Shown one piece after another: positions 302-16,143 of a DNA stretch of 16,143 nucleotides. The stretch lies in IMG/VR virus record IMGVR_UViG_3300029373_000400, positions 1 through 16,143 of that record. One strand, 5' to 3'. The first letter of the stretch is position 1, and each line of letters begins with the position of its first letter. The notes under the pieces were generated by a model. It was not told the DNA's origin and searched no databases. It worked only from the letters and a program-made list of their open reading frames with translations. The position numbers and the translations under genes were made by a program. Origin of the DNA: a virus.

Positions 302-712
302 ATGGATTCACAACAAGAGTTATTCATTGCACTAAAAGTGCAATTAGAAAAAGCGTTAAAAAGTAAAGGTGTTAATGTATATGACACGTTTCTTCCAAGT
401 GAAGGGACACCATATCCATATGTATACATTGGTTCAAGTCAATTGGTAGACGATTACGGAAATAAAACAATGATTTTAGGCAATATTACGCAAGTTGTGG
501 ATGTTTGGCACAACAATCCTAGGAAGCGTGGAGAATTGTCTGAAATTATGCAAACCATTAAGAAAGTGGCTAGACAAATTAACCACACAAACAACTTTGC
601 TTTTATGATCCAAAATATCAACCAACGGATATTGTCGGATTCAAGTACAGGAGCACCATTGATGCATGGTGTTCTAGAGTTGGATTTTAGAATTACAGGA
701 GGAATAAAATAA
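302..712 (+). CDS. tail terminator / tail completion protein (DUF3168-like)
   Basis: 136-aa ORF with SD AGGTGA upstream, located between the neck protein and the major tail protein. The pattern VNVYDTFLP...PYPYVYIG...VDVWH resembles DUF3168-type tail completion proteins. Its stop overlaps the next start (TAATG at 710-714). Confidence 0.5.
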   Translation: MDSQQELFIALKVQLEKALKSKGVNVYDTFLPSEGTPYPYVYIGSSQLVDDYGNKTMILGNITQVVDVWHNNPRKRGELSEIMQTIKKVARQINHTNNFAFMIQNINQRILSDSSTGAPLMHGVLELDFRITGGIK

Positions 713-1248: not shown

Positions 1249-1257
1249 TAAACGCAT

Positions 1258-1284
1258 GAGGGGCAGAGATTGCCCCTTTTATAT
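1258..1284 (+). terminator. rho-independent terminator after the major tail gene
   Basis: Stem GGGGCA (1260-1265) pairs with TGCCCC (1271-1276), with a 5-nt loop GAGAT, followed by TTTT. Confidence 0.6.
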
Positions 1285-1310
1285 TTGTATTTAGAAAGTG
1301 AGGACTTTAA

Positions 1311-1694
1311 ATGAGTAAAAACATGGAAATTGAAGTAAATGGTGAAACATATCAACTAGTAGCAGGGTTTGGATTTTTACATGAAGTCAATAAAAGAGTG
1401 ACTGTAGATGTACCAAACACTAAAAACAAAAAAGAAGTAGGTTTGAAGTTTATGGTCGCAAGCATCATGGATGGAGATATTGATGCATTAGTTGATTGTA
1501 TCTTCTGTATGAATATTGGACAAACACCACGTTTAAAGAAAGCAGACATTGAAAGATATTTAGAAGATGTTGAAGATATTGACAAAGTTTTTGATGACGT
1601 AATCAATTTTTTATCTCAAGCGAATGCGTGCAAGAAAGAAGTGAAATCACTGATGACGAGCATGCAGGAAGAAGAGAAAAAAGAGAAGAAATAG
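1311..1694 (+). CDS. tail assembly chaperone (gpG analogue)
   Basis: 127-aa acidic ORF with SD GTGAGGA, between the major tail protein and the tape measure. It ends in a lysine/glutamate-rich A-run that overlaps an ORF in the -1 frame. Confidence 0.75.
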   Translation: MSKNMEIEVNGETYQLVAGFGFLHEVNKRVTVDVPNTKNKKEVGLKFMVASIMDGDIDALVDCIFCMNIGQTPRLKKADIERYLEDVEDIDKVFDDVINFLSQANACKKEVKSLMTSMQEEEKKEKK

Positions 1695-2038
1695 ACGAAA
1701 CATTTGATGAAATGTATGAACGTGTCGCTTTGACTTGTTTTAGATATCTAGACTTCAAAAGTTTGGATCAGGTAAATAATCTTACCCCTTATGAATATCG
1801 TCTTTTAATGAAGTCCAAAGAGCTACAAATGGTAGATGATCAGTATTATCTGCATTTGCAAGCGTACCTAAATATGACTGCACAAGCTAAAAAGCAAGTG
1901 GGCAAGAAACAGAAAATGGTATACACGAAATTTAGCAAGTTCTTTGACTATCAGAAAGAGTTGGATCGTGTCATGGGGATAAAGAAACAAAGCAAGTTTG
2001 ATAAGTTGGCAGAGTTCATAAATAAAAAGGAGGGATAA
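1311..2038 (+). CDS. tail assembly chaperone frameshift fusion product (gpGT analogue), via -1 slip near 1676-1682
   Basis: ORF 1628..2038 is in the -1 frame relative to 1311..1694 and has no SD of its own. The two overlap across GAG AAA AAA GAG. This is the conserved arrangement upstream of tape measure genes in long-tailed phages. Confidence 0.6.
1676..1682 (+). promoter_or_regulatory. candidate -1 programmed ribosomal frameshift slippery run (G AAA AAA)
   Basis: The zero-frame codons are AAA(1677-79) AAA(1680-82). A -1 slip reads GAA AAA AGA GAA GAA ATA GAC, which is the frame of ORF 1628..2038. The zero-frame stop is 10 nt downstream, at 1692-1694. Confidence 0.5.
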
Positions 2039-2040
2039 CA

Positions 2041-4863
2041 ATGGCAGAAAGTTTTAGTGTTGAAGCCATACTAACGGCAACCGATAAGAATATGACCTCA
2101 ACCATGAACAAAGCTATAGGAGCGTGTCAGTCGTTTGGTGATAGAGTTAAATCTATCGTTGCAGGTGTTGGTATAACTAAAGCTATTGGTGCAACGATGA
2201 ACGTTCTTAGCTCATCCTTTGATGGTGCTATTAATAGATTTGATACCATGCAATCCTATCCAAAAGTTATGAAGTCTTTGGGATTTTCAATTGAACAATC
2301 TCAAAAGAGTGTTGCAAAGTTAAATCAGTCAGTACAAGGCTTACCAACAAACTTGGCAGATGTTGTAACAACATCTAAGTCGTTGGCTGCCGTTACAAGT
2401 AATATTGATAAGGCAACTGATACTACAATTGCATTAAATCATGCGTTTTTAGCAAGTGGATCTAGTTCCGAAGATGCATCACGTGGCTTACAACAGTATT
2501 CACAGATGCTCGCTAAAGGGTCAGTAGATATGCAATCATGGAGAACCTTACAAGAAACAATGGCACCTGCATTGACTAAAGTATCTAAGAAACTAGGTAT
2601 TGCAAGTGGAGATGCAAACGAATTATATGAGGCCTTAAAGAATGGAACGATTACATTCGACCAATTCAATGATGCAATGATTGAATGTGATACAGAAACT
2701 GGTGGATTCGCAGAAACTGCATTAGAAGCTTCCAAAGGAATCAAAACATCTATGACTAACATCAAGAGTGCAGTACAAAACTTAGAACAAGGGTTCTTGT
2801 CTGCAATGAATAACATGTTGAAGTCAAAAGCCATGGGTGGATTAGTTGATAATCTAGAAAAGATTAAATCTAAAATCTATGAGTTTAGAAATTCAATCAT
2901 GGAAACCAAAGATGATGGATTAACATGGGATTTCAAGCCAGGAGTTATGGAAAATGTATCAAAAGCTATGGATTGGCTTGCAGATAGAGCAAACAATGCT
3001 AAAGCTATGGTCCAACAATTCTATGATGGATTTATGAAGACAGATGCAGTACAAAACGCAATTACATTGTTCGACAAAGTCAAAGATGCTATTGGAAATG
3101 TAATGGATAAGTTGCAAGACAGTAAAGTCTTTGAGCAGTTAGGAGAAGATATTGGAAATATCATTGCAAAAGTAGAAGATGTAACTGGCAAAATTGCAGA
3201 TTTCATAGCAAATCTTAAAACGGAAGATGTTAAGAGATTTGCAAGTGCAGTCAAATTATTGGCAGGAGCATTTGTTGCAATCAAAGTCGGTAGCAAAGTA
3301 TCTACTATGATTAGTGGTGTCGTTGGCACGGCTAAAGGTGGATATTCAAAGTTAAAATCAATTATTGACAAAATCAGAGGATTAGGAGAAAAACCAACTC
3401 AAGAAATACCTGGACAATTACCACAAAATGGTACTCCAAGTGACGGTATTGGTGATGCAACAATGCGAACTGCTCAGAAAACATCTAAAGCTGCACAGAT
3501 TATTAATTCTGCATTTGAAGGGATTTCAAATGTTATTTCTTCAGTATGTGAAGGTGTAAAGGGAATCATCACAGGTCTAGGAGAAGCCATCAGCACTGCA
3601 TTTCAAGGTATCGGACAAGGCATTAAATCGGCTTTAGAAGGAGTCGGTACAGTTATTGAATCGTTTGGTACTGCAATCAGTACGGTAGCACAAGGTATTG
3701 GACAAGGTTTAGCAACTGCATTTACAGGATTAGGAACTGCAATTGCAATGGTGCCACCTACTACATGGCTTGCGTTGGCAGCAGCTATTCTTGCGACTGG
3801 TGCTGCAATGGCATTGGTTGGATCACAAGGTGAAGGCTTGCAAATGGTTCTTCAGGGTGTTGCAGATGTTGTTTCTGCGTTTGGACCTGTTATCAAAGAA
3901 GTGTTTGAAGGTATCAGTGGTGTAATTACATCATTTGGTGAAACAGTAAGTGGAATCTTAAACTCAGTATCAGGAGTGATTAAATCTATTGGACAATCTG
4001 CTTTGAATGCTGGTAAAGGATTTAAAGAATTAGCTAAAGGTATTCAGATTATTACTGGTTTAAATTTGTTTGATATGGGAGCTAGCTTAGCTGCAGTTGC
4101 AACAGGTATAGGAGCTATATCTGCAGCTTCTGTAGGCATAGGAAGCGCTGGTACTCAGATGATGGCTCTTGTAACTGCTATAAGTATGGTAGGTACTACA
4201 TTTGCCAGTACATCGGCTACAGTGACAAACTCATGCAATAACATTATCAGTGCAATGTCTGCAGCAGAAGCTAGGGCTTCGAGTTCAGGAACTGCAATGG
4301 GTACTAAGTTTACATCAGGACTAAAAGGTAGTTTATCAAGAAGTGTGTCAATAGCACGATCTTCATGCAATAACATAATCAGTGCATTCAATGCGTGTCA
4401 GTCAAAAGCACAATATTGTGGTCAGATGATTGGTCAAGGATTGGCAAATGGTTTAAGAGCTAGTGAAGGTGCTGTTAGAGCAGCGGCCGCTAGTTTAGCA
4501 GCTGCTGCGGATGCCGCAATTCAAGCTAAAGCGAAAATCGGTTCTCCGTCTAAAGTTACTAAGAAAGATGGTATGTGGACTGGAAAAGGCTATGTTCTAG
4601 GTCTTGAATCCATGTATTCTGACGTAAAAAGAGCTGCAGAGAAGTTATTATACCTTCCACTAATGAGCACTCCTAAAATGGCTTTTGGAGGTGTTGTGAG
4701 TGATATGAATGCAGAATACGATTACACTAGCAACGCTCAATTAACGGTTGAAACACCACTTTACATTAATGATCGTGAATTTGCACGTGCAACATATAGA
4801 GCAAATCAGAATGAGATTAACAGAAACTCAAAGCTTAACGAGAGATTGCGAGGTAACAGATAA
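2041..4863 (+). CDS. tail tape measure protein
   Basis: 940 aa with a strong SD (AAGGAGGG) and the position after the chaperone pair. It has a long helical N-terminal half, a Gly/Ala-rich hydrophobic repeat region (GIGQG.. motifs) and an internal duplicated module. Its stop overlaps the next start (TAATG). Confidence 0.9.
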   Translation: MAESFSVEAILTATDKNMTSTMNKAIGACQSFGDRVKSIVAGVGITKAIGATMNVLSSSFDGAINRFDTMQSYPKVMKSLGFSIEQSQKSVAKLNQSVQGLPTNLADVVTTSKSLAAVTSNIDKATDTTIALNHAFLASGSSSEDASRGLQQYSQMLAKGSVDMQSWRTLQETMAPALTKVSKKLGIASGDANELYEALKNGTITFDQFNDAMIECDTETGGFAETALEASKGIKTSMTNIKSAVQNLEQGFLSAMNNMLKSKAMGGLVDNLEKIKSKIYEFRNSIMETKDDGLTWDFKPGVMENVSKAMDWLADRANNAKAMVQQFYDGFMKTDAVQNAITLFDKVKDAIGNVMDKLQDSKVFEQLGEDIGNIIAKVEDVTGKIADFIANLKTEDVKRFASAVKLLAGAFVAIKVGSKVSTMISGVVGTAKGGYSKLKSIIDKIRGLGEKPTQEIPGQLPQNGTPSDGIGDATMRTAQKTSKAAQIINSAFEGISNVISSVCEGVKGIITGLGEAISTAFQGIGQGIKSALEGVGTVIESFGTAISTVAQGIGQGLATAFTGLGTAIAMVPPTTWLALAAAILATGAAMALVGSQGEGLQMVLQGVADVVSAFGPVIKEVFEGISGVITSFGETVSGILNSVSGVIKSIGQSALNAGKGFKELAKGIQIITGLNLFDMGASLAAVATGIGAISAASVGIGSAGTQMMALVTAISMVGTTFASTSATVTNSCNNIISAMSAAEARASSSGTAMGTKFTSGLKGSLSRSVSIARSSCNNIISAFNACQSKAQYCGQMIGQGLANGLRASEGAVRAAAASLAAAADAAIQAKAKIGSPSKVTKKDGMWTGKGYVLGLESMYSDVKRAAEKLLYLPLMSTPKMAFGGVVSDMNAEYDYTSNAQLTVETPLYINDREFARATYRANQNEINRNSKLNERLRGNR

Positions 4864-6389
4864 TGTATGCATTCGTAAATACAGTAAATAGTGGCATCGT
4901 CGGTACTAATCTACCGACAGAAGCCATGTCATATAATGGCGTATATTTAGAAAATGAAATAGATGGATATCGTACACTTTCTGTAACAGGACGTGAGTTG
5001 ATGGAATCAGAAGTAAAACATACTGAAATTGATGGAATGGATGGTTCTTATTACAGATATAAAACAACTCCTGCAAGAACGATTACTGTTAAATATCAGT
5101 TGAGAGCTAGAGGAAGCAGAGAATTTCGAGACGCGTATAACAAGATGAATAAATTGTTGAGTGGCGAACAAGTAAAAGTCATTTTTAATGATGAAAGCGA
5201 CAAGTATTTCATTGGAACTAAGACATCTAACACACAAGTTGATGGCGGAAGTAATAACGTGATCGGTGAAATCGAAATCTATTGCTCAGACCCATGCAAA
5301 TATTCAACCACAGAAAAAGAATTTACTGATACTGATGGAGTGTTAAACATTGTCAATGAAGGAACTGTACCTGTAAGTATTGATTATGAGGTTCAGACAA
5401 CATCTGAAACCGGATATATTGGTATCGTATCAACTGAAGGTGTCATGCAGTATGGCAAAATTGAAGAATTAGATGGCGAAACATATCAGAACAGTGAATG
5501 TTTAGCTACAATCGATAGTTTTTATAATTGCGCAGATGATAAAAGTGGAACAGATATAATGCATCCACAGTACGGCGCTAATGGAACTTGTGCTAAAAAA
5601 AGTTGGTTTGGTCAAAACTTTCTAGGCTTTGGAACAGTCGGAACAAAAAAGGGGGATGCTAGTGGTGGATTAAGAACGCTAGTAATACCTGCAGATTCAA
5701 ATGGAGATTCAAGTGGTGCACAGAACTTCTATTGTTATTTTCATTTGTTGTTTTATGCAGGACTTATGGGTCAGACTGGTGAAATGTGCATCAACTTCTT
5801 GACTGCAGATAACAAATTGATTTGTGGATGTAACTTTTATAAAACAGATACAGTCGGAAATACAGGTCACTATGAAATATGGGCGAATGGCAAGATGTTG
5901 AGAAATTGGAACTATACTACTTCTCATTTACAATCTCAAAATCCATGGTATTGGAATTGGGGACATTGCGATATCTTGAAAGAAGGCGGAAATATCCGCT
6001 TCTTCTATTACGGAGGATATTACAATTATTACATTCCAGAGATTTCAAATATGAAGTGTGCCAAGATTCAAGTTGCTTTCAAACAATGGGGTAATCGAGG
6101 TGGAAATCAATTGATGTCTATGATGGGATTTGATGTAATCAATTATTTCAAAAATAATGTATCAAAATGGAGAAACATCCCCAACAGATATCCTAATGGT
6201 ACAAAAATCACGATTGATGGCAAGTCATCTCATGTTTATGTGAATGGTATGGCTAGACCTCAAGATGAGGTGCTAGGAACTAAGTATTTTAAAGCACCAG
6301 TAGGAACTACAGAGATAAAGACTACGTGCTCAAGTTGGTCAAAATCGAAGCCGATAGTGAAAGCTAGAATAAGGGAGGCATGGTTATAA
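4863..6389 (+). CDS. distal tail protein (Dit), enlarged form with a C-terminal extension
   Basis: The N-terminal ~150 aa (YNGVYLENEIDGYRTLSVTGRE...ITVKYQL...KVIFNDESDKYFIG...IEIYCSDPCKYS) fit the siphovirus tail component / Dit fold pattern. The gene follows the tape measure. At 508 aa it is about twice the classical Dit length. Confidence 0.7.
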   Translation: MYAFVNTVNSGIVGTNLPTEAMSYNGVYLENEIDGYRTLSVTGRELMESEVKHTEIDGMDGSYYRYKTTPARTITVKYQLRARGSREFRDAYNKMNKLLSGEQVKVIFNDESDKYFIGTKTSNTQVDGGSNNVIGEIEIYCSDPCKYSTTEKEFTDTDGVLNIVNEGTVPVSIDYEVQTTSETGYIGIVSTEGVMQYGKIEELDGETYQNSECLATIDSFYNCADDKSGTDIMHPQYGANGTCAKKSWFGQNFLGFGTVGTKKGDASGGLRTLVIPADSNGDSSGAQNFYCYFHLLFYAGLMGQTGEMCINFLTADNKLICGCNFYKTDTVGNTGHYEIWANGKMLRNWNYTTSHLQSQNPWYWNWGHCDILKEGGNIRFFYYGGYYNYYIPEISNMKCAKIQVAFKQWGNRGGNQLMSMMGFDVINYFKNNVSKWRNIPNRYPNGTKITIDGKSSHVYVNGMARPQDEVLGTKYFKAPVGTTEIKTTCSSWSKSKPIVKARIREAWL

Positions 6390-9300
6390 TGGAAAATACA
6401 AGAATCGCAGTATTAACTCCTTATGACAAAGTTCTAACGTTTCTAGACAACACAGTAACTAGTTGTATGCATTATTTTGATGAAACATTGCATACATACT
6501 TGAAAGGCTCAGCATATACATTTGAATTCACTACATTGACTGCACATGATGATGCAGCCTTTTTAGTTGAGGGCAATAAATTAAGCTTTACTAGAAAGAA
6601 CAAAGGCTATTATTTAACGATTATGAATGTTGAAAAAGGTGGTGACACAACAAATGTTACCGCCTACGGCCTTTGCCTTGAATTAACGAATGAATATGTA
6701 GATGCATATAAAGCGCCTAGAGCGATGTCATTTGCAGAATATGTTAATGCGTATGGATTTGAACAATCGTTCGTAATTGGCAAGAATGAAGTATCAGACA
6801 AACGTATCACACATGAGTGGACTGGAAGTGATACTGTACTAGCTCGATTGTATTCAATCGCAAATGTATTTGATGCAGAATTAGAGTTCGTAACTCAATT
6901 GAATGACGATTATTCTTTGAAGAACTTTGTGTTGAATATTTACAGAGCTCATTCAGATTCCGTTCAAGGAATGGGAAGTGATAAGCGTAGCACGATCTTA
7001 AGATATCCTAATGATGTTTACGGAATCACTAAAACAAGTGATATTACAGAGTTGTATACAGGTATCAGACCTACGGGTAATAATGGGTTACAACTTAACT
7101 CGATTAGTGGCCGTGTTGTAAAAGATTCAAATGGAAATATTTTGTATAAAGTTCAAGGTAACAATATACTTGCACCTCAATCTAGAGATAGATTTCCTAG
7201 TACGTTATTAACAAATCATTCAAACGATATGTATGCAGTGCTAGTGTGGTCTTATGAAACTGAAAACGTTGAGACATTATACGGTCAAGCATTGGCTCAG
7301 TTGAAAAAGAATTGTGTTCCTAAAGTTACGTATGATGTAGATGCATATATTGATGCAGATATCGGTGATACGTTTACTATCGAAGATGCAGAATATAGTC
7401 CTACATTGTATTTAGAAGCACGAATAACGGAACAAGAGATTTGTTTCACGGATTCCGAGAAGTGCAAGACTATTTTTGACAACTTTGAAGAAAAGCAATC
7501 ACAGATTAGTTCAGCTCTGATCAGCGAAATGAACAAGATGATTGAATTGAAAAAAGTTTATGAAGGTTCAATCGTATCTTCAAATGGAGTTCTTTTTAAG
7601 ACAGATTCAGATTCAACCAAATTAACTGCATTGGTAAAGGATGATGGTGTTGATATTACATCTAAGTATTCAATTATTTGGTACAAAGACGATGTGCAAA
7701 TATCAACAAATCAAACTATCACAATTAGTGCATCAGACGTATCAGAAAAGGCCGTATATCGATTTAAAGCTTTGAGTGGTGAAATACTTAAAGCAAGTGC
7801 AGAAGTCACTGTAATGCGATTGCAAGATGGTCAGAATGGAACGAGTGCATATGTGCATATTGCCTATGCCAACAGTTCAGATGGGCAAGTTGATTTTAGT
7901 TTGACGGATTCAAATCGTAAATTTATTGGTCAGTATTCTGACTCAAAGCAATATGGTTCTTATGACCCAACCAAATACAGATGGTCGGCAATTAAAGGGG
8001 AAGATGGTCAGTCATTTGTGAGCGCCGAGGAACAGTTCTATTATTCTACATCTCAAACTGAATTAATCGGTGGTGAGTGGTTTGTTGGAAATGTGGTTTA
8101 TCAATCAGATAAGTTCTTATGGAAACGTTGGAAATGTACGTATGCCAATCCAAGTGAAATCAAGTACACGAAAGCTATTTTTGACAACACTTGGAATGAA
8201 ATTGATGCGAAAATCGGTGAGATTCACACTCAAGTGTCTCAAGCAAATGTGCAATCAAAAGAAGCAGTTGAAAAAGCAACACAAGCTCAGATAGATGCAA
8301 GTAAAGCAAATGAATTGGCAAATACCGCTAACACTCAATCAAGCGAGGCTAAGCAACTAGCACAAGATGCGAATACTAGCACTGGTAAAGCACAAGAACA
8401 GATTGATGCGATTAAAGGAGATATCAATGATTCAAAGCAACAGATTCAAGATGCAGTGGATAAAGCCAACGCAAACGCAAGTGAAATCGATACAGTAAAA
8501 GAAACATACGCTACAAAAGTTGATTTAACTACTGAATCAAAATCTATTCATGCAGATGTTACAACAGAAATTGAAAAGAAAGTTGGTGAATTGTCGACTA
8601 CTGTATCAGAAACTTATGCTTCTAAGAGTGATTTAACAAGCATTGAAGGTAGTTTAAATACCAAGATTAAACAAAATGCCGATTCAATCACGACTCAAGC
8701 AAGCTCGATTGAAAAGCTGCAGTCTGATACAACTCAAGCTAAGAAAGATATTACTGATGCGACTAAAAAAGCAACGGATGCTCAAACTCAAGCGGATAAA
8801 GCTTTAGGTAATGCTCAGAGTGCTCAAACTTTAGCAGACCAAGCTAAAAAAAAGGCAGACAGTGCACAATCAAATTTAGATAGCGCTAATAAAGAGTTGG
8901 CAGATGCAAAAGCTAATCTAGAAGCAGTGACTGGTAGAGTTGATGCGACTGAGAGCGAAATCACAAAAGCTCAAACACGTTTAACAAACGCAGAATCTGC
9001 AGTACAGAAAGCTCAGTCTGATGCAACTAAGGCTCAAGGTAACGCAACTACGGCAATCAATAATGCAAAGGCAGCTCAAGGAGTGGCGGATAATGCAAAG
9101 CAGAAAGCAGAACAAGCTCAAAAGGATTTGAACGCATTGACTAATCGAGTTACTACTGCAGAAACAACTATTAAGCAGAATAGTGATTCTATCAAATTAC
9201 AAGCAACTCAAATTACTGATACAGGCAAAAAGATTGATGATCTAAAAATTGGTGGAAGAAATTTACTATTACAATCCGGTCATTGGCAAAGCAAACCAAC

Positions 9301-10258
9301 TTGGTGGCGTGATAATGGCGGTGGATTAGAATTAGATACTGCAGTTAAATATAATGGATACAACACGATAAAAACAGTTGCCGGGAACGGTATTGTAGGG
9401 AATAATGGTAATTTTTTAGAAGTTGATATGAAAAAAACATATACATATTCTGCGTTGGTTAAAGTAGTTGAATCTGATTTTACTGAAGGGAATGTATTCT
9501 ATCCTTTGCATTTTCAAAGCAGCGATACTGCCGATGGTAAAACTTTTAGTTCTGATGTAACTTCTATATCTTATAGTCAAAACGCAAAAAAGGGTGAATG
9601 GACTTTAATATATACAACATTTATACCTAAGCATAAATATATCAGACCATTTGTATGGTTTGGAAGTAAAGATAGGACTTTTAATATTGCCTATCTAAAG
9701 CTTGAAGAAGGAAATAAGCCAACCGATTGGACTCCAGCTCCTGAAGATGTAGATGAAGCAATAAATACAGAACGTACTGAGCGACAGTCCGCAATTGAGA
9801 CTAAGGCAAATGAAATTACTTCAAAGGTTAGTGAAACTTACGTATCAAATTCGGCTTTGAATCATTATAAAGAAGAAGTATCTACTCAGTTTAGCCAAAC
9901 TAAGAGCGATTTTACGTGGTCAATTAATCGAAGCGTGACCGATGCTAAAAATGAAATGAATGGTCAAATCAGCAGTGTGAATGGTAGATTGGATGGTTTA
10001 AAACAAACTGCAGATAACGTAAATAGTTATATGTCTTTTGATAACGATGCATTGACTTTAGGTAAATCAGACAGTGCATTTAAAACTAAGATTACAAACC
10101 AAGAATGGTCGATTCAAAAGAATGGTGCAAAGGTAACATATATAAACGATCAAACAATGTACATTACAGATGGACAATTTACGCAGTCTTTAAAAGTTGG
10201 TGCATTTGGATTCGTTCCAAGAGCTAATGGCTCTTTAGATTTCAAGAAAGTAGGGTGA
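6389..10258 (+). CDS. tail-associated tip protein (Tal-like minor structural protein) with coiled coil and CBM-like module
   Basis: The ORF is open from ATG 6380, but GGAGG at 6374-6378 is better spaced for ATG 6389, which overlaps the Dit stop as TAATG. The N-terminal ~380 aa resemble the phage minor structural protein / prophage tail endopeptidase N-terminal region. The motif YVHIAYANSSDGQVDFS is present, followed by a long Ala/Gln/Lys-rich coiled coil. The module ending LKLEEGNKPTDWTPAPEDV is typical of Gram-positive phage tail tips. Confidence 0.75.
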   Translation: MENTRIAVLTPYDKVLTFLDNTVTSCMHYFDETLHTYLKGSAYTFEFTTLTAHDDAAFLVEGNKLSFTRKNKGYYLTIMNVEKGGDTTNVTAYGLCLELTNEYVDAYKAPRAMSFAEYVNAYGFEQSFVIGKNEVSDKRITHEWTGSDTVLARLYSIANVFDAELEFVTQLNDDYSLKNFVLNIYRAHSDSVQGMGSDKRSTILRYPNDVYGITKTSDITELYTGIRPTGNNGLQLNSISGRVVKDSNGNILYKVQGNNILAPQSRDRFPSTLLTNHSNDMYAVLVWSYETENVETLYGQALAQLKKNCVPKVTYDVDAYIDADIGDTFTIEDAEYSPTLYLEARITEQEICFTDSEKCKTIFDNFEEKQSQISSALISEMNKMIELKKVYEGSIVSSNGVLFKTDSDSTKLTALVKDDGVDITSKYSIIWYKDDVQISTNQTITISASDVSEKAVYRFKALSGEILKASAEVTVMRLQDGQNGTSAYVHIAYANSSDGQVDFSLTDSNRKFIGQYSDSKQYGSYDPTKYRWSAIKGEDGQSFVSAEEQFYYSTSQTELIGGEWFVGNVVYQSDKFLWKRWKCTYANPSEIKYTKAIFDNTWNEIDAKIGEIHTQVSQANVQSKEAVEKATQAQIDASKANELANTANTQSSEAKQLAQDANTSTGKAQEQIDAIKGDINDSKQQIQDAVDKANANASEIDTVKETYATKVDLTTESKSIHADVTTEIEKKVGELSTTVSETYASKSDLTSIEGSLNTKIKQNADSITTQASSIEKLQSDTTQAKKDITDATKKATDAQTQADKALGNAQSAQTLADQAKKKADSAQSNLDSANKELADAKANLEAVTGRVDATESEITKAQTRLTNAESAVQKAQSDATKAQGNATTAINNAKAAQGVADNAKQKAEQAQKDLNALTNRVTTAETTIKQNSDSIKLQATQITDTGKKIDDLKIGGRNLLLQSGHWQSKPTWWRDNGGGLELDTAVKYNGYNTIKTVAGNGIVGNNGNFLEVDMKKTYTYSALVKVVESDFTEGNVFYPLHFQSSDTADGKTFSSDVTSISYSQNAKKGEWTLIYTTFIPKHKYIRPFVWFGSKDRTFNIAYLKLEEGNKPTDWTPAPEDVDEAINTERTERQSAIETKANEITSKVSETYVSNSALNHYKEEVSTQFSQTKSDFTWSINRSVTDAKNEMNGQISSVNGRLDGLKQTADNVNSYMSFDNDALTLGKSDSAFKTKITNQEWSIQKNGAKVTYINDQTMYITDGQFTQSLKVGAFGFVPRANGSLDFKKVG

Positions 10259-10262
10259 TTGA

Positions 10263-12122
10263 ATGGCAGAATTTAGTGGAAGTATACAAATCACAAGTGG
10301 TGAATGGGGAAAATATTCCATCATATTAAGATGCTCGGAAGATTCTTACTCAATAGAAAATAACACTTCTCGTGTATATTGGTGGGTTGGTATCCGTTCA
10401 AATACTCAATATCACAATCACCAAGGATTGAGCGAACACTATAAAGTGGTAGTGAATGGTTCAACAGTACACGATGCTAACCATACAGTTTCGTGTGGTA
10501 GTGGCAAAACTGTTGGAATCGCAGATGGATATACAACAGTATCGCACAATGCAGATGGTTCTAAATCAATCAGTGCTAGTGCATCATTTAGTTGTGGCAA
10601 TACAAGTTATTACGCACCTCGAACTGGTTCTTGCAGTGGTACAGTTAAATTGACAACTATTCCAAGAGCATCAAGCATATCTATTGATAGCCCTAGTATT
10701 GAATGTGGTAACACTATTAATATTAATGGTTCGAGTGCTTCAAAGAACTTTACGCATAAAATCTATGCAACATGGAATGGTAAAACAAGTGAATTAACAA
10801 CGATAAGTGGGACATTAACACCCACTTTTTCTTATACGATTCCTACCGCATGGGAAAAGGATTTGCCTAACTCGACAAGTGGAATTGTTACTTTTACATT
10901 AGAGACATTCAGTGGTTCAACATCGGTCGGTTCTAAGTCGGTAAATGCGACTATCAAAGTCAGAAGCAGTGTTGTTCCTTCGATTGACAGTATCAAAGTA
11001 ACAGATGCAAACTCAGTATGTGCAGGCATTGGTCAAATAGTTCAGTCACAGTCTAGACTGAAGTTTGCAATAACTTACAGTGGTGCGCAAGGTTCAACTG
11101 TTACATCTGTATCAACCAAATTTGAAGGACAAACATACAATGGTAGTTCATTTACAACTGGTATTGTACGAGGCAGTGGTAGCATTACCTATACAACAAC
11201 GATCTATGATTCACGTGGTAGAAGTTCACAAATTAGTGGCAAAGTAACTGTATCTGCATATAGTTCACCTAGCTTAACGAATGTGACTGCAAGACGTGCT
11301 AACTCAAGTTATACAGTTGATGAAGCAAGTGGAACGTATGCGTTATTGCACTTCAAAGTAGGATTTACTAGTTTAACTGGTAAGAATGTGACGTCATTCT
11401 ATATCCAATATCGAGCTAGTGGAGCTAGTTCATGGACGAAAATAAATTCATGGGATAACAACTATACTCTTGAGCAAGACTACAAAGCAGGTAATTTATT
11501 TACATCCGCAACAAATTCTTATGAAGTGGCATTCGGTGTTAAGGATAAGTTCATGAATGACTACTCATGGCAAATCTTTACTGTAGCACCTACTTACTCG
11601 TTAATTAACTTTGGTAAAGATGGAAGATCATTAACGTTCTTTGGTCAAGATGCTAATCAAAAAGATACGCTAACAGTATTAGGTGATATTGTAGCTCCTA
11701 TTTTCTTGAACAAGATATTTCCAGTTGGTGCGGTATATATTACATATGACAACAACAATCCAGGCAACTTCTTAGGTGGTACATGGGAGCAGTTTGGACA
11801 AGGTCGAACTTTGGTCGGAGAAGGTACTGGAAACGATGGTAGTACAAGTATGTCCTTTACAACCGAATCTACGGGTGGAGAGTATAGGCACAAGTTATCA
11901 ACAGATGAGATGCCTAGCCATAATCACAGAATACCAGACCAAGCTGATGACAATAGTTCTTTTAAAACATACGATTGGGGAGATCCTATGCTTCTAGGAA
12001 CTAAAAGAGCAACTAAAAACAAAGGCTATTGGTGGTCTATAACCGAATATGTGGGAGGTAGTAAATCACACAATAACTTACAGCCTTATGTTGTCACTTA
12101 TTTTTGGAGGCGTGTTAATTAA
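10263..12122 (+). CDS. tail fibre / baseplate receptor-binding protein, currently fused to C-terminal variant A
   Basis: 619 aa, the last structural gene. The N-terminal part has repeated beta-rich Ser/Thr modules reminiscent of DUF859-type siphovirus proteins (from memory, needs an HMM search). The C-terminus (FPVGAVYITY...GGTWEQFGQGRTLVG...GGEYRHKLSTDEMPSHNH...HNNLQPYVVTYFWRRVN) matches the Firmicute phage baseplate-protein / tail-collar-like tip domain. Confidence 0.75.
   Translation: MAEFSGSIQITSGEWGKYSIILRCSEDSYSIENNTSRVYWWVGIRSNTQYHNHQGLSEHYKVVVNGSTVHDANHTVSCGSGKTVGIADGYTTVSHNADGSKSISASASFSCGNTSYYAPRTGSCSGTVKLTTIPRASSISIDSPSIECGNTININGSSASKNFTHKIYATWNGKTSELTTISGTLTPTFSYTIPTAWEKDLPNSTSGIVTFTLETFSGSTSVGSKSVNATIKVRSSVVPSIDSIKVTDANSVCAGIGQIVQSQSRLKFAITYSGAQGSTVTSVSTKFEGQTYNGSSFTTGIVRGSGSITYTTTIYDSRGRSSQISGKVTVSAYSSPSLTNVTARRANSSYTVDEASGTYALLHFKVGFTSLTGKNVTSFYIQYRASGASSWTKINSWDNNYTLEQDYKAGNLFTSATNSYEVAFGVKDKFMNDYSWQIFTVAPTYSLINFGKDGRSLTFFGQDANQKDTLTVLGDIVAPIFLNKIFPVGAVYITYDNNNPGNFLGGTWEQFGQGRTLVGEGTGNDGSTSMSFTTESTGGEYRHKLSTDEMPSHNHRIPDQADDNSSFKTYDWGDPMLLGTKRATKNKGYWWSITEYVGGSKSHNNLQPYVVTYFWRRVN
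11848..11860 (+). repeat. crossover core A (GTATGTCCTTTAC) inside the fibre gene
   Basis: Read directly from the sequence. It spans codons S-M-S-F-T (aGT ATG TCC TTT ACa) of the 619-aa ORF and is identical to core D on the opposite strand. Confidence 0.7.
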
Positions 12123-12435
12123 TCCTCTTCCAAAGATATACGACAATATAAGGTTGTGTAATATCGAAAGACTTATTTCCACCATTTGATGTTATACGCC
12201 ATCCATACTGCGTCGTAGAATCATCTCCTACAAATCTATTTTCTGAATAAGGTTTTATTCCATATTTATCTTTTGAAACAACTCCAATGGCATCTCCGTA
12301 AAGTCCATTGTTATCCCAAAGATAATGGTTCGTTGGAACAATGGCAGGCATCATGCCGATAATATAATTTGGAATGTTTTCTCTTGATAAACATTTCTTA
12401 TAAAAACCGCCTGTTTGCTTGGCAGTATATGACAT
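12115..12435 (-). CDS. silent fibre C-terminal cassette B (106 codons, no SD or promoter)
   Basis: It begins MSYTAKQTGGFYKK, which aligns with MSFTTESTGGEYRHK of the fibre, and ends QPYIVVYLWKRIN versus QPYVVTYFWRRVN. It is convergent with the fibre gene end and overlaps it by 8 bp. No usable SD lies upstream. Confidence 0.7.
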   Translation of the reverse strand: MSYTAKQTGGFYKKCLSRENIPNYIIGMMPAIVPTNHYLWDNNGLYGDAIGVVSKDKYGIKPYSENRFVGDDSTTQYGWRITSNGGNKSFDITQPYIVVYLWKRIN

Positions 12436-12437
12436 AC
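12425..12437 (-). repeat. crossover core B (reads GTATGTCATATAC on the - strand)
   Basis: Read directly; 11 of 13 bases are identical to core A. Its ATG is the first codon of cassette B, in the same phase as in core A. Confidence 0.6.
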
Positions 12438-12454
12438 CTTTATATTTAGCTTAT

Positions 12455-12467
12455 GTATGTCTTTTAC
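12455..12467 (+). repeat. crossover core C (GTATGTCTTTTAC)
   Basis: Read directly; 12 of 13 bases are identical to core A. Its ATG is the first codon of cassette C, in the same phase. Confidence 0.65.
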
Positions 12468-12735
12468 GGCCACTAATACATATGGAAAATACAAGCACCT
12501 ACATAGTTCAGGTTCACTAGGAGTGCCAGCAACTTCTATTGCTGGTGGAGGAGGATTTGATTATATTGAAGTGAATACCGGACTAGGTGACTACAATACG
12601 AGTCATAGATTAAATGCTTCTATAAGTAAAACATCAGGCAAGCATACTGTAAGAATGCCTGTTGACGGAAACACTTATACTAGTAGCTCATTACAACCTT
12701 GCATATGTGTTTATTTTTGGAAAAGAATTAAATGA
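12457..12735 (+). CDS. silent fibre C-terminal cassette C (92 codons, no SD or promoter)
   Basis: It begins MSFTATNTYGKYKH and ends LQPCICVYFWKRIK. Its start lies within core C and there is no SD upstream. Confidence 0.7.
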   Translation: MSFTATNTYGKYKHLHSSGSLGVPATSIAGGGGFDYIEVNTGLGDYNTSHRLNASISKTSGKHTVRMPVDGNTYTSSSLQPCICVYFWKRIK

Positions 12736-13021
12736 TTCTCCGCCAAAAGAATACACATATCGATGGTTGTAATGTACTAGCATTTCCTAAATCACCGATA
12801 ATACCAGCTCCATATTCTGTATCACTAGCTGTATAGGATTTGTTTTTTGCACCGCCCACAAACCAATCGGGCTTCCAATAGTGATTTGTGTATTTAGGTT
12901 TAATGGCTATACCAGTACTATCCAAAGCTGCACAATAAAGATAATTTACTTGTGCAATTAAATCTCCAACACTATGCGTATGTGTATACTTTCCGTAATG
13001 TTCGTTTGAAGTAAAGGACAT
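12728..13021 (-). CDS. silent fibre C-terminal cassette D (97 codons from the core ATG)
   Basis: From the core ATG (13021-13019 on the - strand) it reads MSFTSNEHYGKYTHTH...LQPSICVFFWRRII. The 11 extra N-terminal codons in the ORF track (from 13054) run into the recombinase gene and are taken as an ORF-calling artefact. Confidence 0.7.
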   Translation of the reverse strand: MSFTSNEHYGKYTHTHSVGDLIAQVNYLYCAALDSTGIAIKPKYTNHYWKPDWFVGGAKNKSYTASDTEYGAGIIGDLGNASTLQPSICVFFWRRII

Positions 13022-13023
13022 AC
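13011..13023 (-). repeat. crossover core D (reads GTATGTCCTTTAC on the - strand)
   Basis: Read directly; all 13 bases are identical to core A in inverted orientation. It lies 2 bp from the recombinase stop codon (13026-13028). Confidence 0.7.
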
Positions 13024-13025
13024 AT

Positions 13026-13919
13026 TTACTTGTAATATTCACAAAGTAGCTCAACGCATTTTCTTTTCAATTCCATTTGTGGGTGGACATAAATATTCAT
13101 GGTTATCGACACGTTTGAGTGACCAAGTAACTCACTCAGCGATTTGTAGTCACATCCGCATTCAATACATCTTGTAGCGAATGTGTGACGGAGTGCGTGG
13201 AATTTACGATGTGGAAGCTCAAGGTCTTTCAATATTCGGTTGTAGTAAAGCCTATATTTATTAGGCTCTATCGGTTTATCTCGATTTGTTAATACATAGT
13301 TATTTTCTTCGCCTTGAAGAAGTATTGCATAGTGCATTATCCAACTATTGAGTGGAATCATCCGAGTACTAGAGCGTGATTTAGGTGGAGTAATGTGTAA
13401 TTGGCTACCATCTTCTTTGGTGTATGTTCGTATCATGGTTTTATCTATTTTTAACAATTTGGTTTGAGTGTTTATATCAGACCATTTCAAAGCGCATAGT
13501 TCACCTATGCGTATTCCAGTGTGGATGCATAAAAGGATTCCAAAGTTTTTACAGTTTATCTCAGATTGGAGGTGATTAATTAATGAAACTTGATGCTCTT
13601 TTTCAAAAATCTCTACCGCCGTAGGAGGATGGTAAGGTAACTGAACATCGACTTTGAACGGAAGTGTAAATTTAAGAATTTGGATAATGTCTTTGGCATA
13701 TTTAAACGATATGCCACCTTTTCCATCTTTACGACCATTTTCAAGTTTTTGAAGAATCATTTCCTGAAGAATATCATTGTTCAGTTCCTCGATTTGATAA
13801 CTGCCAAGTGATGGCAGTATGTGATTGTGGATCACATTACAATAATTTGTGTAAGTGCTGTATTTTAGATAGATTTTCTTTTCTTTTAACCAAGAATGTA
13901 ATTTGTCAGAATATAGCAT
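13026..13919 (-). CDS. tyrosine site-specific recombinase (XerC/D-sized, phage integrase family), candidate shufflon invertase
   Basis: 297 aa with an N-terminal SAM-like core-binding pattern. The catalytic signature is visible: TGIRIGEL (Arg I), PKSRSSTRMIPL (Lys hairpin), HALRHTFAT (His-x-x-Arg) and LGHSNVSITMNIYVH (His/Tyr nucleophile). SD GAGGT lies upstream on the - strand. Confidence 0.9.
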   Translation of the reverse strand: MLYSDKLHSWLKEKKIYLKYSTYTNYCNVIHNHILPSLGSYQIEELNNDILQEMILQKLENGRKDGKGGISFKYAKDIIQILKFTLPFKVDVQLPYHPPTAVEIFEKEHQVSLINHLQSEINCKNFGILLCIHTGIRIGELCALKWSDINTQTKLLKIDKTMIRTYTKEDGSQLHITPPKSRSSTRMIPLNSWIMHYAILLQGEENNYVLTNRDKPIEPNKYRLYYNRILKDLELPHRKFHALRHTFATRCIECGCDYKSLSELLGHSNVSITMNIYVHPQMELKRKCVELLCEYYK

Positions 13920-13957
13920 TTTTGTTTACCTCGCTTTTTTTATATTAATAGGAGGAT

Positions 13958-13985
13958 TTTATATGACTAAGGTTCATGAAATCAA
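13958..13985 (-). promoter_or_regulatory. possible sigma-A type promoter for the recombinase gene
   Basis: The - strand reads TTGATT, then 16 nt, then TATAAA, roughly 40 nt upstream of the recombinase ATG. This is a by-eye match only. Confidence 0.25.
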
Positions 13986-14211
13986 TTTAAATACAAAGTT
14001 ATGGAATTTCTTTACGGAACATGACTTTATTATTCTTGATTTGACAGATAAACAAATCAATGAACAAGATTACGTGTTATTCAAACAAGTGTCTTTAGAT
14101 GAAGGAAAAGAAACTGATACAGGTTTGTTTAGAATGACACAAATTCGTAGCATCACAACTAACGATGGTTTCAAAGATGGTTATGTGATGTTAAACGTAA
14201 CTAAATTATAG
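13963..14211 (+). CDS. small hypothetical protein, possibly ASCH/DUF3850-like
   Basis: AGGAGGA at 13950-13956 is correctly spaced for ATG 13963, so the 13903 start in the ORF track (which overlaps the recombinase start) is unlikely. The pattern HEINLNTKLW.F......FIILDL....QDYVLFKQ...TG....MTQIRSI....GFKDGYVMLNV loosely recalls DUF3850. Confidence 0.4.
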   Translation: MTKVHEINLNTKLWNFFTEHDFIILDLTDKQINEQDYVLFKQVSLDEGKETDTGLFRMTQIRSITTNDGFKDGYVMLNVTKL

Positions 14212-14218
14212 ATATTGC

Positions 14219-14244
14219 GGAGTCTAGAAATAGGCTCTTTTTTA
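14219..14244 (+). terminator. rho-independent terminator
   Basis: Stem GGAGTCTA (14219-14226) pairs with TAGGCTCT (14231-14238), including G-U pairs. The loop is GAAA and a T-run follows. Confidence 0.5.
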
Positions 14245-14267
14245 ATAAGTCTAATAGGAGGATCAAT

Positions 14268-14540
14268 ATGAATTTAGATTTTACACAAGTTACAAATTAT
14301 TTTGTTTTAGTTGTTTTGGTAGCGTGCTTAGTTGTCGGATATATTTTAAAAACATCATTTACAAGTTTCCCTAATAAATATATTCCAACAGTGCTTGCTT
14401 TAATTGGAATGACATTAAATCTAGCGGTATCAGGTCTTTCAATTGAAAGTGCCGTATATGGAGCGGTGATGGGATTGGCATCTACCGGACTGCATCAGGC
14501 ATTTACACGTTTCATTGAAGGCAAACACGAAGATGAATAG
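14268..14540 (+). CDS. holin (Hol44 / phage_holin_5-like)
   Basis: 90 aa with SD AGGAGG, hydrophobic helices and a charged C-terminal tail (KHEDE). The NKYIPTVLALIGM motif is recalled from Hol44-type holins. It lies upstream of the endolysin. Confidence 0.75.
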   Translation: MNLDFTQVTNYFVLVVLVACLVVGYILKTSFTSFPNKYIPTVLALIGMTLNLAVSGLSIESAVYGAVMGLASTGLHQAFTRFIEGKHEDE

Positions 14541-14551
14541 GGTGTTGGATT

Positions 14552-14950
14552 GTGGAAGAAGTAATTAGATCAATCCAACTATTCTTAGTAATATGTGGTG
14601 GTGTTATCACAATCGGTGGTGCTTATAAGGTATTTCAAGATTGGCAAAAACCAAATAAAGATTTAAAAGCGATGGTTCTAAGACATGACGAATTGTTAAA
14701 ACAAGACAACGATAGAATTAAAAATATCGAAAAGTTAGTCATTTCACAAGAAGGTTTAAGTAATAAGCTAAATGAACACACTCGCATTTTATCTGAACAC
14801 GATAATCGTCTTGATGAAGATAAAGAAAGAAGTAATTTATTGCTTAAAGCAAATATTGCAATCTTGAATGGTCTGTTATCAGATGCAGATAAAGAAAAGC
14901 TAGTCGAAACTAGAAATGAAATTCAAGATTTTTTAGTAGAAAAAAATTAG
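14552..14950 (+). CDS. membrane-anchored coiled-coil protein of the lysis cassette (function unknown)
   Basis: GTG start with a weak SD (GGGTG). It has one N-terminal transmembrane helix (IQLFLVICGGVITIGGAY) followed by a charged helical region, and sits between the holin and the endolysin. Confidence 0.5.
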   Translation: MEEVIRSIQLFLVICGGVITIGGAYKVFQDWQKPNKDLKAMVLRHDELLKQDNDRIKNIEKLVISQEGLSNKLNEHTRILSEHDNRLDEDKERSNLLLKANIAILNGLLSDADKEKLVETRNEIQDFLVEKN

Positions 14951-15048
14951 GAGGAAAGAAATATAGAAGAAAAAGAAGTAAAATTTGAAGAATTATCAGA
15001 AGAAGCTCAAACAGAATTGAGTAATGGTAAAGAAGAAGGTGAAGAAGA

Positions 15049-16143
15049 ATGTCATATTCAAGCTTAGCAAATAAATATATTCCTGCTAGTGCAGATAACT
15101 ATATGCGTGGTCGTGGAGGATATAAGATTTGTAAAATCACACCTCATCACATGGCTTGCAAATGGACCGCAGAACGATGCGCTCAGTCATTCCAAGTAAG
15201 CGGAAGAATGGCTAGCGCAAACTATTGTATTGGTTCAGATGGTACTATCGTTGCAAATGTTGACGAAGAGAATCGTGCATGGACATCATCAAACTACTAC
15301 AACGATTGCCAATCAATTACAATTGAAATTGCTAATGATAATACAGATACGTGGACAATCTCACCAAAAGCATGGAATGCATTAGTAAATCTATGCGTGG
15401 ATGTATGTAAACGATATGGATTCAGATTGAATTATACTGGTGACTCAACGGGTAGTTTAACAGAGCATAGAATGTTCGCAGCTACATCTTGCCCAGGCCC
15501 TTATTTACATTCGAAAATGCCTCAATTAGCACAAGAAGTAAATGCTAGATTGGATGGTCAAACTGTAGCACCAAGTGCTCCAAGTACTCCAAACACTCCA
15601 AGTGATGAGAAGTATTCAGTCGGTATACCTATCTGCACAAATACATTAAGCGTTAACTGCTACGGAACTTCTAAAATTGTAAAAGGTGATTGGAGTGGTT
15701 CTATTGGCAGAGTCATTAAAGGTGCTAAATATCCGTATCGAGTAGACCGTAATGGTGTAGCGATTGGATGGACTAATGATGCTGGTATTGATACAGACCC
15801 TCACACACCAGTTGGAGCAACACAGTCTAGTGCAGAAGCTATCGACCAAATCTTGCATGAAGGTAGCTATGTTACATCTGTGCATATGAAGATTGGTAAT
15901 CAAGGCTTGAAAAAGATTGGTGATGATTTATGTGCTTATCTTGCTCAATTAGGCGGTTGGTTTCCAATTCGTTTAGTCGACAAAGTACCTAATTCAGATG
16001 GATATAATGACAATGTATTGCATACCACAAATGCAGTAGTCTATGTATCTCGAATCAGAGTCGATGCAGTGAATGCTCAAAAGAATATTGTTAAAATTGG
16101 CGGTATTTGGGTTGACCCAACACCATTAACAGAAATTGCATAA
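15049..16143 (+). CDS. endolysin: N-acetylmuramoyl-L-alanine amidase (Amidase_2/PGRP fold) with a C-terminal wall-binding region
   Basis: The N-terminal ~165 aa carry ITPHHMA, ANYCIGSDG, EENRAWTSS and TEHRMFAATSCPGPY (the zinc-ligand His/His/Cys pattern of Amidase_2). A Pro/Ser/Thr linker (APSAPSTPNTPS) precedes a ~180-aa beta-rich C-terminal region. The ORF ends with TAA at the window end. Confidence 0.9.
   Translation: MSYSSLANKYIPASADNYMRGRGGYKICKITPHHMACKWTAERCAQSFQVSGRMASANYCIGSDGTIVANVDEENRAWTSSNYYNDCQSITIEIANDNTDTWTISPKAWNALVNLCVDVCKRYGFRLNYTGDSTGSLTEHRMFAATSCPGPYLHSKMPQLAQEVNARLDGQTVAPSAPSTPNTPSDEKYSVGIPICTNTLSVNCYGTSKIVKGDWSGSIGRVIKGAKYPYRVDRNGVAIGWTNDAGIDTDPHTPVGATQSSAEAIDQILHEGSYVTSVHMKIGNQGLKKIGDDLCAYLAQLGGWFPIRLVDKVPNSDGYNDNVLHTTNAVVYVSRIRVDAVNAQKNIVKIGGIWVDPTPLTEIA

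Follow-up and report, generated by a model that had tools for sequence, protein, structure and literature searches.

A probable tyrosine-recombinase shufflon at the tail-fibre tip of temperate siphoviruses from gut Erysipelotrichaceae

Introduction

The exchange of phage receptor-binding tips by DNA inversion is an established concept, both from serine enzymes, known since Gin of phage Mu, and from the Rin shufflon of the Bifidobacterium prophages Bb423phi1 and Bl157phi1, which was presented as the first tyrosine DNA invertase to be encoded by a phage (Mavrich et al., 2018; PMC6109161) and is also found in clade-1 prophages of Eggerthella lenta (PMC8778435). Here we analyse a stretch of 16,143 nucleotides (nt), positions 1-16,143 of the IMG/VR record IMGVR_UViG_3300029373_000400 (the whole of this stretch is hereafter the window), in which a gene for a tail fibre of 619 amino acids (aa) is followed by three silent paralogues of its C-terminal tip and by the gene of a 297-aa tyrosine recombinase. 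We read this locus, with a probability of roughly 0.86, as a multiple-inversion shufflon that joins one of four tips to the fibre, in the tail module of a temperate siphovirus; as part of this same explanation, the source phage is very probably a temperate siphovirus of gut Erysipelotrichaceae, from the Holdemanella/Faecalitalea group.

The locus shares with Rin a temperate siphovirus with a Gram-positive gut host, a constant receptor-binding protein gene with several C-terminal cassettes behind it that have no promoter, a short asymmetric crossover site that occurs both within this gene and where each cassette begins, and a flanking tyrosine recombinase that is devoid of an arm-binding domain and separate from the prophage integrase. 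Directly oriented sites are retained in both systems, and this property is also known for Rci. Isoforms were seen between prophage and virion genomes in the case of Rin, and are seen here among assembled contigs. The two systems differ in their hosts, which are Actinobacteria for Rin and Bacillota here; in their tips, TP901-1-like or H-type lectin in Rin and a T4 gp10-type C-terminal domain here; and in their sites, namely, the 11-bp rix site TTCCCTAACCC as opposed to GTAAA-N-GTATGTC-N-TTTAC, the recombinases being compared by description only. Convergent cassette pairs with overlapping stops are present here, unlike in Rin.

The shufflon of R64/IncI plasmids, where Rci acts on pilV, also combines a tyrosine recombinase with multiple inversions, alternative C-termini on a constant adhesin gene and a recombinase gene just outside the segment. 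However, pilV belongs to a plasmid conjugative pilus, whereas the gene studied here encodes a phage fibre (DUF859 plus gp10_C) within a tail module. At the sfx sites recognised by Rci, exchange takes place in a 7-bp spacer; their right arm is conserved and their left arm is not, whereas here both arms are short inverted repeats, the left one being moderately conserved. Similarity to Rci was not detected in a tblastn search of 72,556 plasmids, which is an indirect test, Escherichia and Salmonella not being among the ten most frequent genera; the best match was from Phocaeicola (39%).

Gin (Mu), Cin (P1), Pin (e14) and Min (p15B) swap the C-terminal part of a fibre by inversion and give mixed virions, and Min, moreover, works on a multi-cassette shufflon. 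These are, however, serine invertases that need an enhancer and Fis, and their segments carry a tail-fibre assembly gene. No tail-fibre assembly gene, enhancer or serine recombinase is present here according to Pfam and PHROGs scans of the open reading frames (ORFs) of the window (both databases for seven of the nine ORFs from 6380 on, PHROGs only for the seven upstream ORFs), in which a tyrosine enzyme of the PF00589 family was the one recombinase found.

In the archaeal myovirus phiCh1 the recombinase gene is located within the invertible region. According to the account given in PMC8371274, its Int1 inverts the tail-fibre genes ORF34/ORF36 (Rossler et al., 2004), and viruses related to phiCh1 have been described (PMC6471424). 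A virus-encoded tyrosine recombinase thus inverts between converging fibre genes in that system too, with exchange of their C-termini, but the partners are two full genes with repeat clusters and not cassettes headed by a site. [quoted passage not shown] A Gin-driven shufflon is known from an Enterobacter phage (PMC13418256), and a systematic inversion survey lists phage tail proteins among its targets (PMC9881135).

An initial annotation of the window, made from the sequence, had held that a four-tip shufflon driven by a tyrosine recombinase on the fibre of a Gram-positive siphovirus was not a textbook system, a claim of novelty that is overstated given the earlier Rin (PMC6109161, PMC8778435) and phiCh1. 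What is new here is that such a fibre shufflon occurs in phages of Bacillota, that its tips are of the T4 gp10 type and that its site differs. Our literature search found no description of this Erysipelotrichaceae system, an absence that is no proof of its being undescribed. Tyrosine-recombinase fibre shufflons are hereby extended from phages of Actinobacteria to those of Bacillota (Erysipelotrichaceae), which are common in the human gut.

Recombination sites and natural isoforms

The features of the locus, with their positions in the window and their strands, are the following.

10263-12122, plus strand: fibre gene, 619 aa
10263-11849, plus strand: constant part of the fibre, residues 1-529, with DUF859 and the first third of a T4 gp10-type C-terminal domain
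11842-11860, plus strand: site s1, within the fibre gene; GTACAA, GTATGTC (11848-11854), CTTTAC
11850-12122, plus strand: tip A, expressed in the window, 90 aa; GGEY..MPSHNH motif, closing strand LQPYVVTYFWRRVN
12079-12158, plus strand: predicted RNA hairpin from the convergent 3' ends of A and B, across the fibre stop codon
12115-12435, minus strand: tip B, silent, 106 aa; intact ORF, devoid of the H-x-H motif
12425-12443, minus strand: site s2, head of B; ATAAAG-GTATGTC-ATATAC
12449-12467, plus strand: site s3, head of C; GCTTAT-GTATGTC-TTTTAC
12457-12735, plus strand: tip C, silent in the window, 92 aa; expressed in contigs L003 and L007
12728-13021, minus strand: tip D, silent in the window, 97 aa from the core ATG; expressed in contigs L077 and L079
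13011-13029, minus strand: site s4, head of D; GTAAAT-GTATGTC-CTTTAC
13026-13919, minus strand: shufflon tyrosine recombinase, 297 aa; PF00589 (4e-28) and PF14659

The 619-aa fibre and the three ORF fragments that follow it, on the minus, plus and minus strands, lie at the coordinates of the initial annotation, and the fragments are, as it claimed, paralogous to the last 90 aa of the fibre (24-42% identity among tips A-D; pairwise BLASTP E = 2e-13 to 2e-4). Together with tip A they form two convergent pairs, A+ B- and C+ D-, in segments that contain the tips of 90-106 aa alone and no additional ORF. Of the two motifs that had been noticed, the N-terminal one is present in all four tips; the C-terminal one, which opens with LQP, is exact in C and D, but the stated V is a T in A, and B reads TQP where the motif has LQP. 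The silent tips had also been said to be free of Shine-Dalgarno sequences and promoters. No Shine-Dalgarno sequence is visible by eye upstream of the cassette ATGs, but promoter-like hexamers do occur (10 in the region as against 11.9 expected from shuffles), for instance at 12419-12446, just upstream of C; scans for consensus promoters and terminators were uninformative in this AT-rich DNA.

The pattern GTATGTCNTWTAC has four copies, at 11848(+), 12425(-), 12455(+) and 13011(-), as against 0.01 expected (four or more copies in 0 of 200 shuffles). Their alternating orientation and common codon phase are as first annotated: each copy is read GT-ATG-TCN-TWT-AC, that is, M-S-F/Y-T, and is open through to a stop. 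So is the position of the tyrosine recombinase directly outside the last copy, which lies 2 nt from the end of the gene, the left arm of s4 overlapping its stop codon (AAG-TAA-AT). What did not stand is the extent of the 13-bp core that had been placed at each cassette and in the fibre, since GTATGTC is the only 7 bp identical in the four copies and positions 8 and 10 vary. A logo of 64 silent-side sites from related loci, introduced below, reads GTAAA-N-GTATGTC-N-TTTAC, that is, two 5-bp inverted arms flanking an asymmetric 7-bp spacer. The left arm, although non-coding at silent cassettes, is still conserved (G73 T79 A62 A64 A100, with A at position -2 in 100% of the 64 sites) and mirrors the coding TTTAC. 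The site is therefore better described as one of ~19 bp with exchange inside 7 bp, the size of a tyrosine-recombinase overlap region. The right arm of s2, ATATAC, deviates from the family consensus NTTTAC; s2 recombines nevertheless, its left flank and that of s4 being swapped in contigs L002 and L003.

The crossover was mapped by an alignment of junctions, which comprises four left flanks (fibre side, recombinase side and both sides of the 17-bp spacer) and four right flanks (the tips). Left and right flanks reassort exactly across GTATGTC: the left flank keeps the base that precedes the 7 bp, the tip keeps the variable bases that follow (C/A/T, then TT/TA), and the 7 bp are the exact point at which the fibre-side flank is joined to tip A, C or D. 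Strand exchange is therefore confined to these 7 bp and, as judged from the assembled sequences, natural recombination has taken place at exactly these sites and within this overlap.

Isoforms were sought among contigs that encode the exact recombinase or the exact cassette B, onto which segments of the window were placed by BLAST; these contigs come from many human-gut samples. Four of the eight possible arrangements were found in contigs with the same recombinase (99.9-100% nt identity), as listed here with N for the constant part and rec for the recombinase gene.

N-A+B-.C+D--rec: the window; L073
N-A+B-.D+C--rec: L005/L070, L071 and L078; from the window by s3 x s4
N-C+D-.A+B--rec: L003; from the window by three steps
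N-D+C-.B+A--rec: L077 and L079; from the window by s1 x s4

The four arrangements match the products of inversion between oppositely oriented sites, and tips A, C and D were each seen joined to the constant part. At the protein level, the in-silico fusion of residues 1-529 with tip C (621 aa) has a residue-for-residue match in the protein collection (P0007), and P0077 consists of the constant part (94% identity) followed by D (97% identity). The same reciprocal junctions recur across independent samples and assemblers (ENA, Logan, JGI), and contigs L039 and L061, from closely related phage strains, carry a pair of arrangements that are one inversion apart. The shufflon is real and frequent in gut metagenomes, and a single reference arrangement under-reports the tip repertoire of such a phage.

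These loci also break metagenome assemblies exactly at the overlap. The exact end of three contigs on the recombinase side (L008, L010, L011) and of three on the fibre side (L024, L029, L047) is ...GTATGTC, two more end at ...GTATGTCCTTTAC (L054, L062), and 9 of 24 IMG/VR contigs with the fibre junction stop within ~92 nt of the core. Contig ends at the 7 bp would be the branch points of a de Bruijn graph if two isoforms coexist. Furthermore, L073 has tip D twice, with junctions from two arrangements, and a single IMG/VR contig contains the junctions N|X, N|Y and rec|X. Contig L066 was considered as a simple fold-back at a contig end, which was rejected because the contig continues and has the rec|X junction; it is now read as a chimera of two isoforms.

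Related loci and concerted change of the overlap

Use of the fibre-side junction sequence as query yielded 45 further contigs, and a protein-guided scan yielded 52 viral loci. A search of this kind had been proposed in the initial annotation, and the 46 viral loci whose recombinases are 64-95% identical at the aa level were examined. Each of them has 2-8 cassettes, in convergent and tandem arrangements, and in all 46 a site lies 5-25 nt past the recombinase stop, a linkage that holds down to 61% recombinase identity and across host genera. With the related loci included, 59 of 62 silent cassettes are intact (57 by motif search plus two B copies by eye).

Within each of the 46 loci the overlap is uniform, being GTATGTC in most and GTATGAC in the others (L108, L114, L126, L128, L129, L130 and L132), with no mixed locus; GTATGAC is also found in the isolate Firmicutes bacterium M10-2 (L015). 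Since GTATGAC occurs in two recombinase clades, of 92% and 65%, the overlap has changed in concert across partner sites. A requirement for overlap identity predicts such a concerted change, which counts strongly against chance or general homologous recombination. Moreover, many loci contain tandem direct sites, and we therefore infer that the enzyme must favour inversion over deletion.

The recombinase and the separate integrase

In the recombinase, a SAM-like core-binding domain is combined with a catalytic domain, and no separate arm-binding domain was detected in its 297 aa by profile scan. Its closest solved relative is the integrase of Tn1549 (6emy, E = 1e-16), and alignment to this enzyme reveals all six catalytic residues, namely, R137, K180, H241, R244, H267 and Y277. 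PHROGs assigns it to phrog_1, 'integrase', and NCBIfam has no family above cut-off for either the recombinase or the fibre. A Shine-Dalgarno sequence, GAGGT, is found 9 nt upstream of its ATG.

Rather than at a prophage end, the recombinase gene is found between those of the fibre and the holin. An integrase is encoded at one end of IMGVR_UViG_3300045988_082439, a contig of 37.9 kb whose other end is 22 nt past s1. The integrase of a group of prophage remnants (319 aa; these remnants are described in the last section), which is at their far end and next to the host rnhB, is 81% identical to the integrase on the phage contig and 27% identical to the shufflon recombinase. By its sequence, then, the 297-aa recombinase is distinct from the prophage integrase.

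The fibre and its exchangeable tips

The fibre matches PF05895 (1.9e-41) and, over residues 482-618, PF21939 (6e-24; 86 bits as against a gathering cut-off of 27), and its gp10-type domain aligns to the C-terminal domain of T4 gp10 (PDB 2fkk, E = 1e-4). When lone cassettes are used, PF21939 gives 21.5 bits for B, which is below cut-off, and no match for C and D. The crossover point falls about one third into the gp10-type domain. In 51 homologues the constant part is 83-100% identical, and column identity drops from ~100% to 8-56% directly past residue 533, where the site ends. In the protein collection, more than 3,600 homologues of the fibre were found (E <= 1e-20), a family in which the shaft is conserved and the tips are very diverse, and 80 distinct tips were counted in ~70 loci.

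The start of the tips, MSFT..GG.Y.H, and their last strand, QPY..V.FW.R, are conserved, and the latter matches NIQPYITVYRWIRI of T4 gp10. On this homology, the conserved ends of the tips probably dock onto the constant third of the domain, with the middle free to vary. An AlphaFold2 model of the full fibre, built with the 51 homologues, is good in its N-terminal part; residues 443-619 have a predicted local distance difference test score below 50.

Where two paired cassettes converge, their stop codons lie in an 8-bp overlap of the 3' ends, the A/B stop palindrome being TTAATTAA. The hairpin predicted at 12079-12158 has a free energy of -38.6 kcal/mol (z = -6.7), none of 200 shuffles being as stable, and a similar region is found around 12684-12779. 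A fibre transcript with any expressed tip would terminate in such a hairpin, which may act as a terminator or as a stabiliser of the messenger RNA.

Proposed mechanism and alternative explanations

The initial annotation read the locus as a switch based on inversion, and this reading is borne out by the natural isoforms, the mapping of the crossover to 7 bp, the concerted change of the overlap and the existence of a separate integrase. In the mechanism that we propose, the 297-aa recombinase most likely binds the short inverted arms; two oppositely oriented sites would pair, strands would be exchanged in the asymmetric GTATGTC overlap via Tyr277, and the intervening DNA would be inverted. Recombination of s1 x s2 or s3 x s4 would flip one cassette pair, and s1 x s4 would flip the whole segment and reverse the order of the pairs. 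Eight arrangements would be possible, each with one tip in frame with the constant part and three tips silent. Each tip would provide the variable two thirds of the T4 gp10-type C-terminal domain, and the conserved first and last strands would let any cassette complete the fold started by the constant part. A population of lysogens would then be a mix of prophage isoforms, and its induction would release virions with different fibre tips, which presumably differ in receptor specificity and may thereby alter adsorption or host range.

A number of points weigh against this interpretation. None of 16 instances of tip B, whose site is the one with the deviant right arm, was located at the fibre junction, and an exact N+B fusion is absent from the protein collection. 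The isoforms are assembled contigs of different samples, within-sample mixtures being deduced from contig ends and chimeric contigs, and the role of the adjacent recombinase as catalyst is argued wholly from strict adjacency and co-occurrence. Two contigs with two cassettes, L002 (N-A+B--rec) and L007 (N-C+D--rec), match what would be left after deletion between the direct sites s2 and s4 or s1 and s3, respectively; either the enzyme is not strictly inversion-only or these contigs are assembly short-cuts. With regard to function, the structural argument for the tips draws on homology to T4 gp10, the AlphaFold2 model being unusable in this region, and the tail-tip-like protein of 1292 aa encoded upstream of the fibre is an alternative candidate for the main receptor-binding protein.

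Other explanations account for part of these data. The family assignment in PHROGs and the kinship with the Tn1549 integrase would suit a prophage integrase that acts on attP x attB elsewhere, next to cassettes that are decaying duplications of the fibre 3' end. This we find barely credible, as a different integrase, represented by the remnant copy of 319 aa with 27% identity, is found at the other end of the phage contig, the recombinase gene is away from the prophage end, nearly all silent cassettes are intact and natural isoforms are recombined at the four sites. It is also true that our evidence comes wholly from assemblies, and that the cassettes share their 5' and 3' ends, with convergent tails that form imperfect inverted repeats of 45-56 nt, as assembly artefacts or RecA-type homologous recombination between conserved cassette ends would need. 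Nevertheless, such an origin is very improbable: the reciprocal junctions recur across independent samples and assemblers, exchange occurs within 7 bp where only 13-15 bp are shared, far under the need of homologous recombination, the overlap changes in concert at all sites of a locus, and left arms that do not code are conserved.

If the inversions are real, they could still be catalysed in trans by a host-encoded invertase while the adjacent recombinase has another job, for which there are precedents in Mpi of Bacteroides and in a second inversion of Bifidobacterium phage that has no flanking recombinase (PMC6109161). Here, however, the recombinase gene is 5-25 nt from the outermost site in 46 of 46 loci, its stop is overlapped by the left arm of a site in the window, and the linkage is kept down to 61% recombinase identity in different host genera, which makes catalysis in trans improbable. 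As to the purpose of a working shufflon, the tips might not determine host range and instead serve a secondary adhesin, evasion of the host or of immunity, or a role in the lysogen; the fibre is a DUF859 protein of putative function, a protein with 'host specificity' matches is encoded upstream, and a ~6-kb prophage remnant retains the shufflon together with lysis genes. We consider this unlikely, because variation is located in the distal two thirds of a gp10-type domain, which forms the very C-terminus of a fibre-like protein, because Gin, Cin and Min, the characterised analogues, are established to change adsorption specificity (for Rin this is predicted only), and because 80 distinct tips occur on a shaft that is 83-100% conserved.

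For the multiple-inversion shufflon favoured here, the site is unusually well defined given that the system is uncultured, which makes it a ready substrate for biochemistry, and engineered phages in which receptor-binding tips are to be swapped have a natural template in the modular join M-S-F-T ... QPY..V.FW.R.

Genomic context and additional observations

By gene content, the window reads as the tail and lysis module of a siphovirus, 16.1 kb in length, with the following genes around the shufflon, in the order of the window.

first genes, in this order: tail completion protein, tail terminator, major tail protein (712-1248)
1311-1694 and 1628-2038: two overlapping tail chaperone ORFs
2041-4863: tape measure protein
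4863-6389: distal tail protein Dit
6380-10258: tail-tip-like protein, 1292 aa, with 'host specificity' PHROG matches
13963-14211: ORF of 82 aa, with no family match, divergent from the recombinase gene
14268-14540: holin
between holin and endolysin: ORF of 132 aa
15049 to the window end: amidase endolysin

The pair of chaperone ORFs (1311-2038) has the layout of the usual programmed frameshift upstream of a tape measure gene. The 82-aa ORF (13963-14211) shares a 43-nt intergenic region with the recombinase gene and is kept in all close relatives, but its place is taken by an ORF of 233-260 aa where recombinase identity is 61-73%; the recombinase can therefore probably do without it as a partner. 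With respect to the host, close homologues of the recombinase were found in metagenome-assembled genomes of Holdemanella (92% identity), Floccifex (73%) and Erysipelotrichaceae, and one fibre homologue carries the label Faecalitalea cylindroides. No match was obtained when the region was compared by megablast with 50,697 phage records.

Beyond the shufflon clade, the nearest relatives of the recombinase, at 33-38% identity, are in human faecal 'Bacteriophage sp.' records. They sit between perfect inverted repeats of 24-29 bp that are ~1.4 kb apart (1576-2996 in L067, 1063-2502 in L068 and 5578-6988 in L069), and therefore the recombinase gene itself would be invertible in these three; the element of L067 is just upstream of a Tad/Flp pilus operon. 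A Bacteroidales relative (37%) in L018 (5568-8092, 2364-10981) is flanked by inverted duplicate genes, which encode 245-aa proteins and outer-membrane-like proteins of ~950-1050 aa, a layout suggestive of a cell-surface operon with a separate invertible locus. The contexts of all these relatives look like those of invertases.

A prophage remnant of ~6 kb between the host genes dprA and rnhB is present in at least three samples (L001, ~9700-14100; L006, ~1200-5900; L072, L075, L076). It retains the integrase, a 171-aa ORF, tips A, B, D and C, the shufflon recombinase, the holin and the amidase. The deletion spans from near the integrase to the fibre core, with its junction exactly at s1, which reads GTGTGTC, and tip A is fused to an unrelated leader of 52 codons, giving a 142-aa ORF. 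An origin of the remnant by a deletion that the recombinase made at a pseudo-site close to the integrase was considered; the left flank of the remnant has no match in IMG/VR or in the integrase-proximal DNA of related phages, with which homology stops ~120 nt past the integrase gene. In L004 (3755-5524; P0018, 589 aa), the constant part is joined inside tip D at the pseudo-site GTAT|AGCC, preceded by TAGTACTG, which resembles TAGTACAA; the fusion is in frame, with 37 codons lost, including the core and the H-x-H motif, and this fibre is probably locked and possibly defective.

The remnant junction at the core and the locked N-D' fusion at GTAT|AGCC are hints of pseudo-site events, and it is tempting to speculate that the recombinase also transfers cassettes among co-resident or superinfecting phages, which would maintain an integron-like pool of tips across the population, and that its off-target events at pseudo-sites lead to prophage decay. 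Transfer between phages is conceivable because many related Erysipelotrichaceae prophages share the site and its overlap, but we hold this extension of the shufflon's role to be doubtful.

Two observations concern the variation of the fibre itself. In L002 the fibre (11212-12999; P0123, 595 aa) has an in-frame deletion of 24 codons, corresponding to codons ~183-206 of the window, in a phage that is otherwise identical, which points to a repeat-prone stretch of the shaft. Finally, a short tip of 66-68 aa, MSFTAN..GG.Y.H...YYGALLNSNGNQMGVH, devoid of the H-x-H motif, is the recombinase-proximal cassette in many related phages (L097, L099, L100, L104, L109-L111, L115, L116, L118, L121 and L135), and this type is expressed in L030, L041 and L056, and is thus a usable tip.

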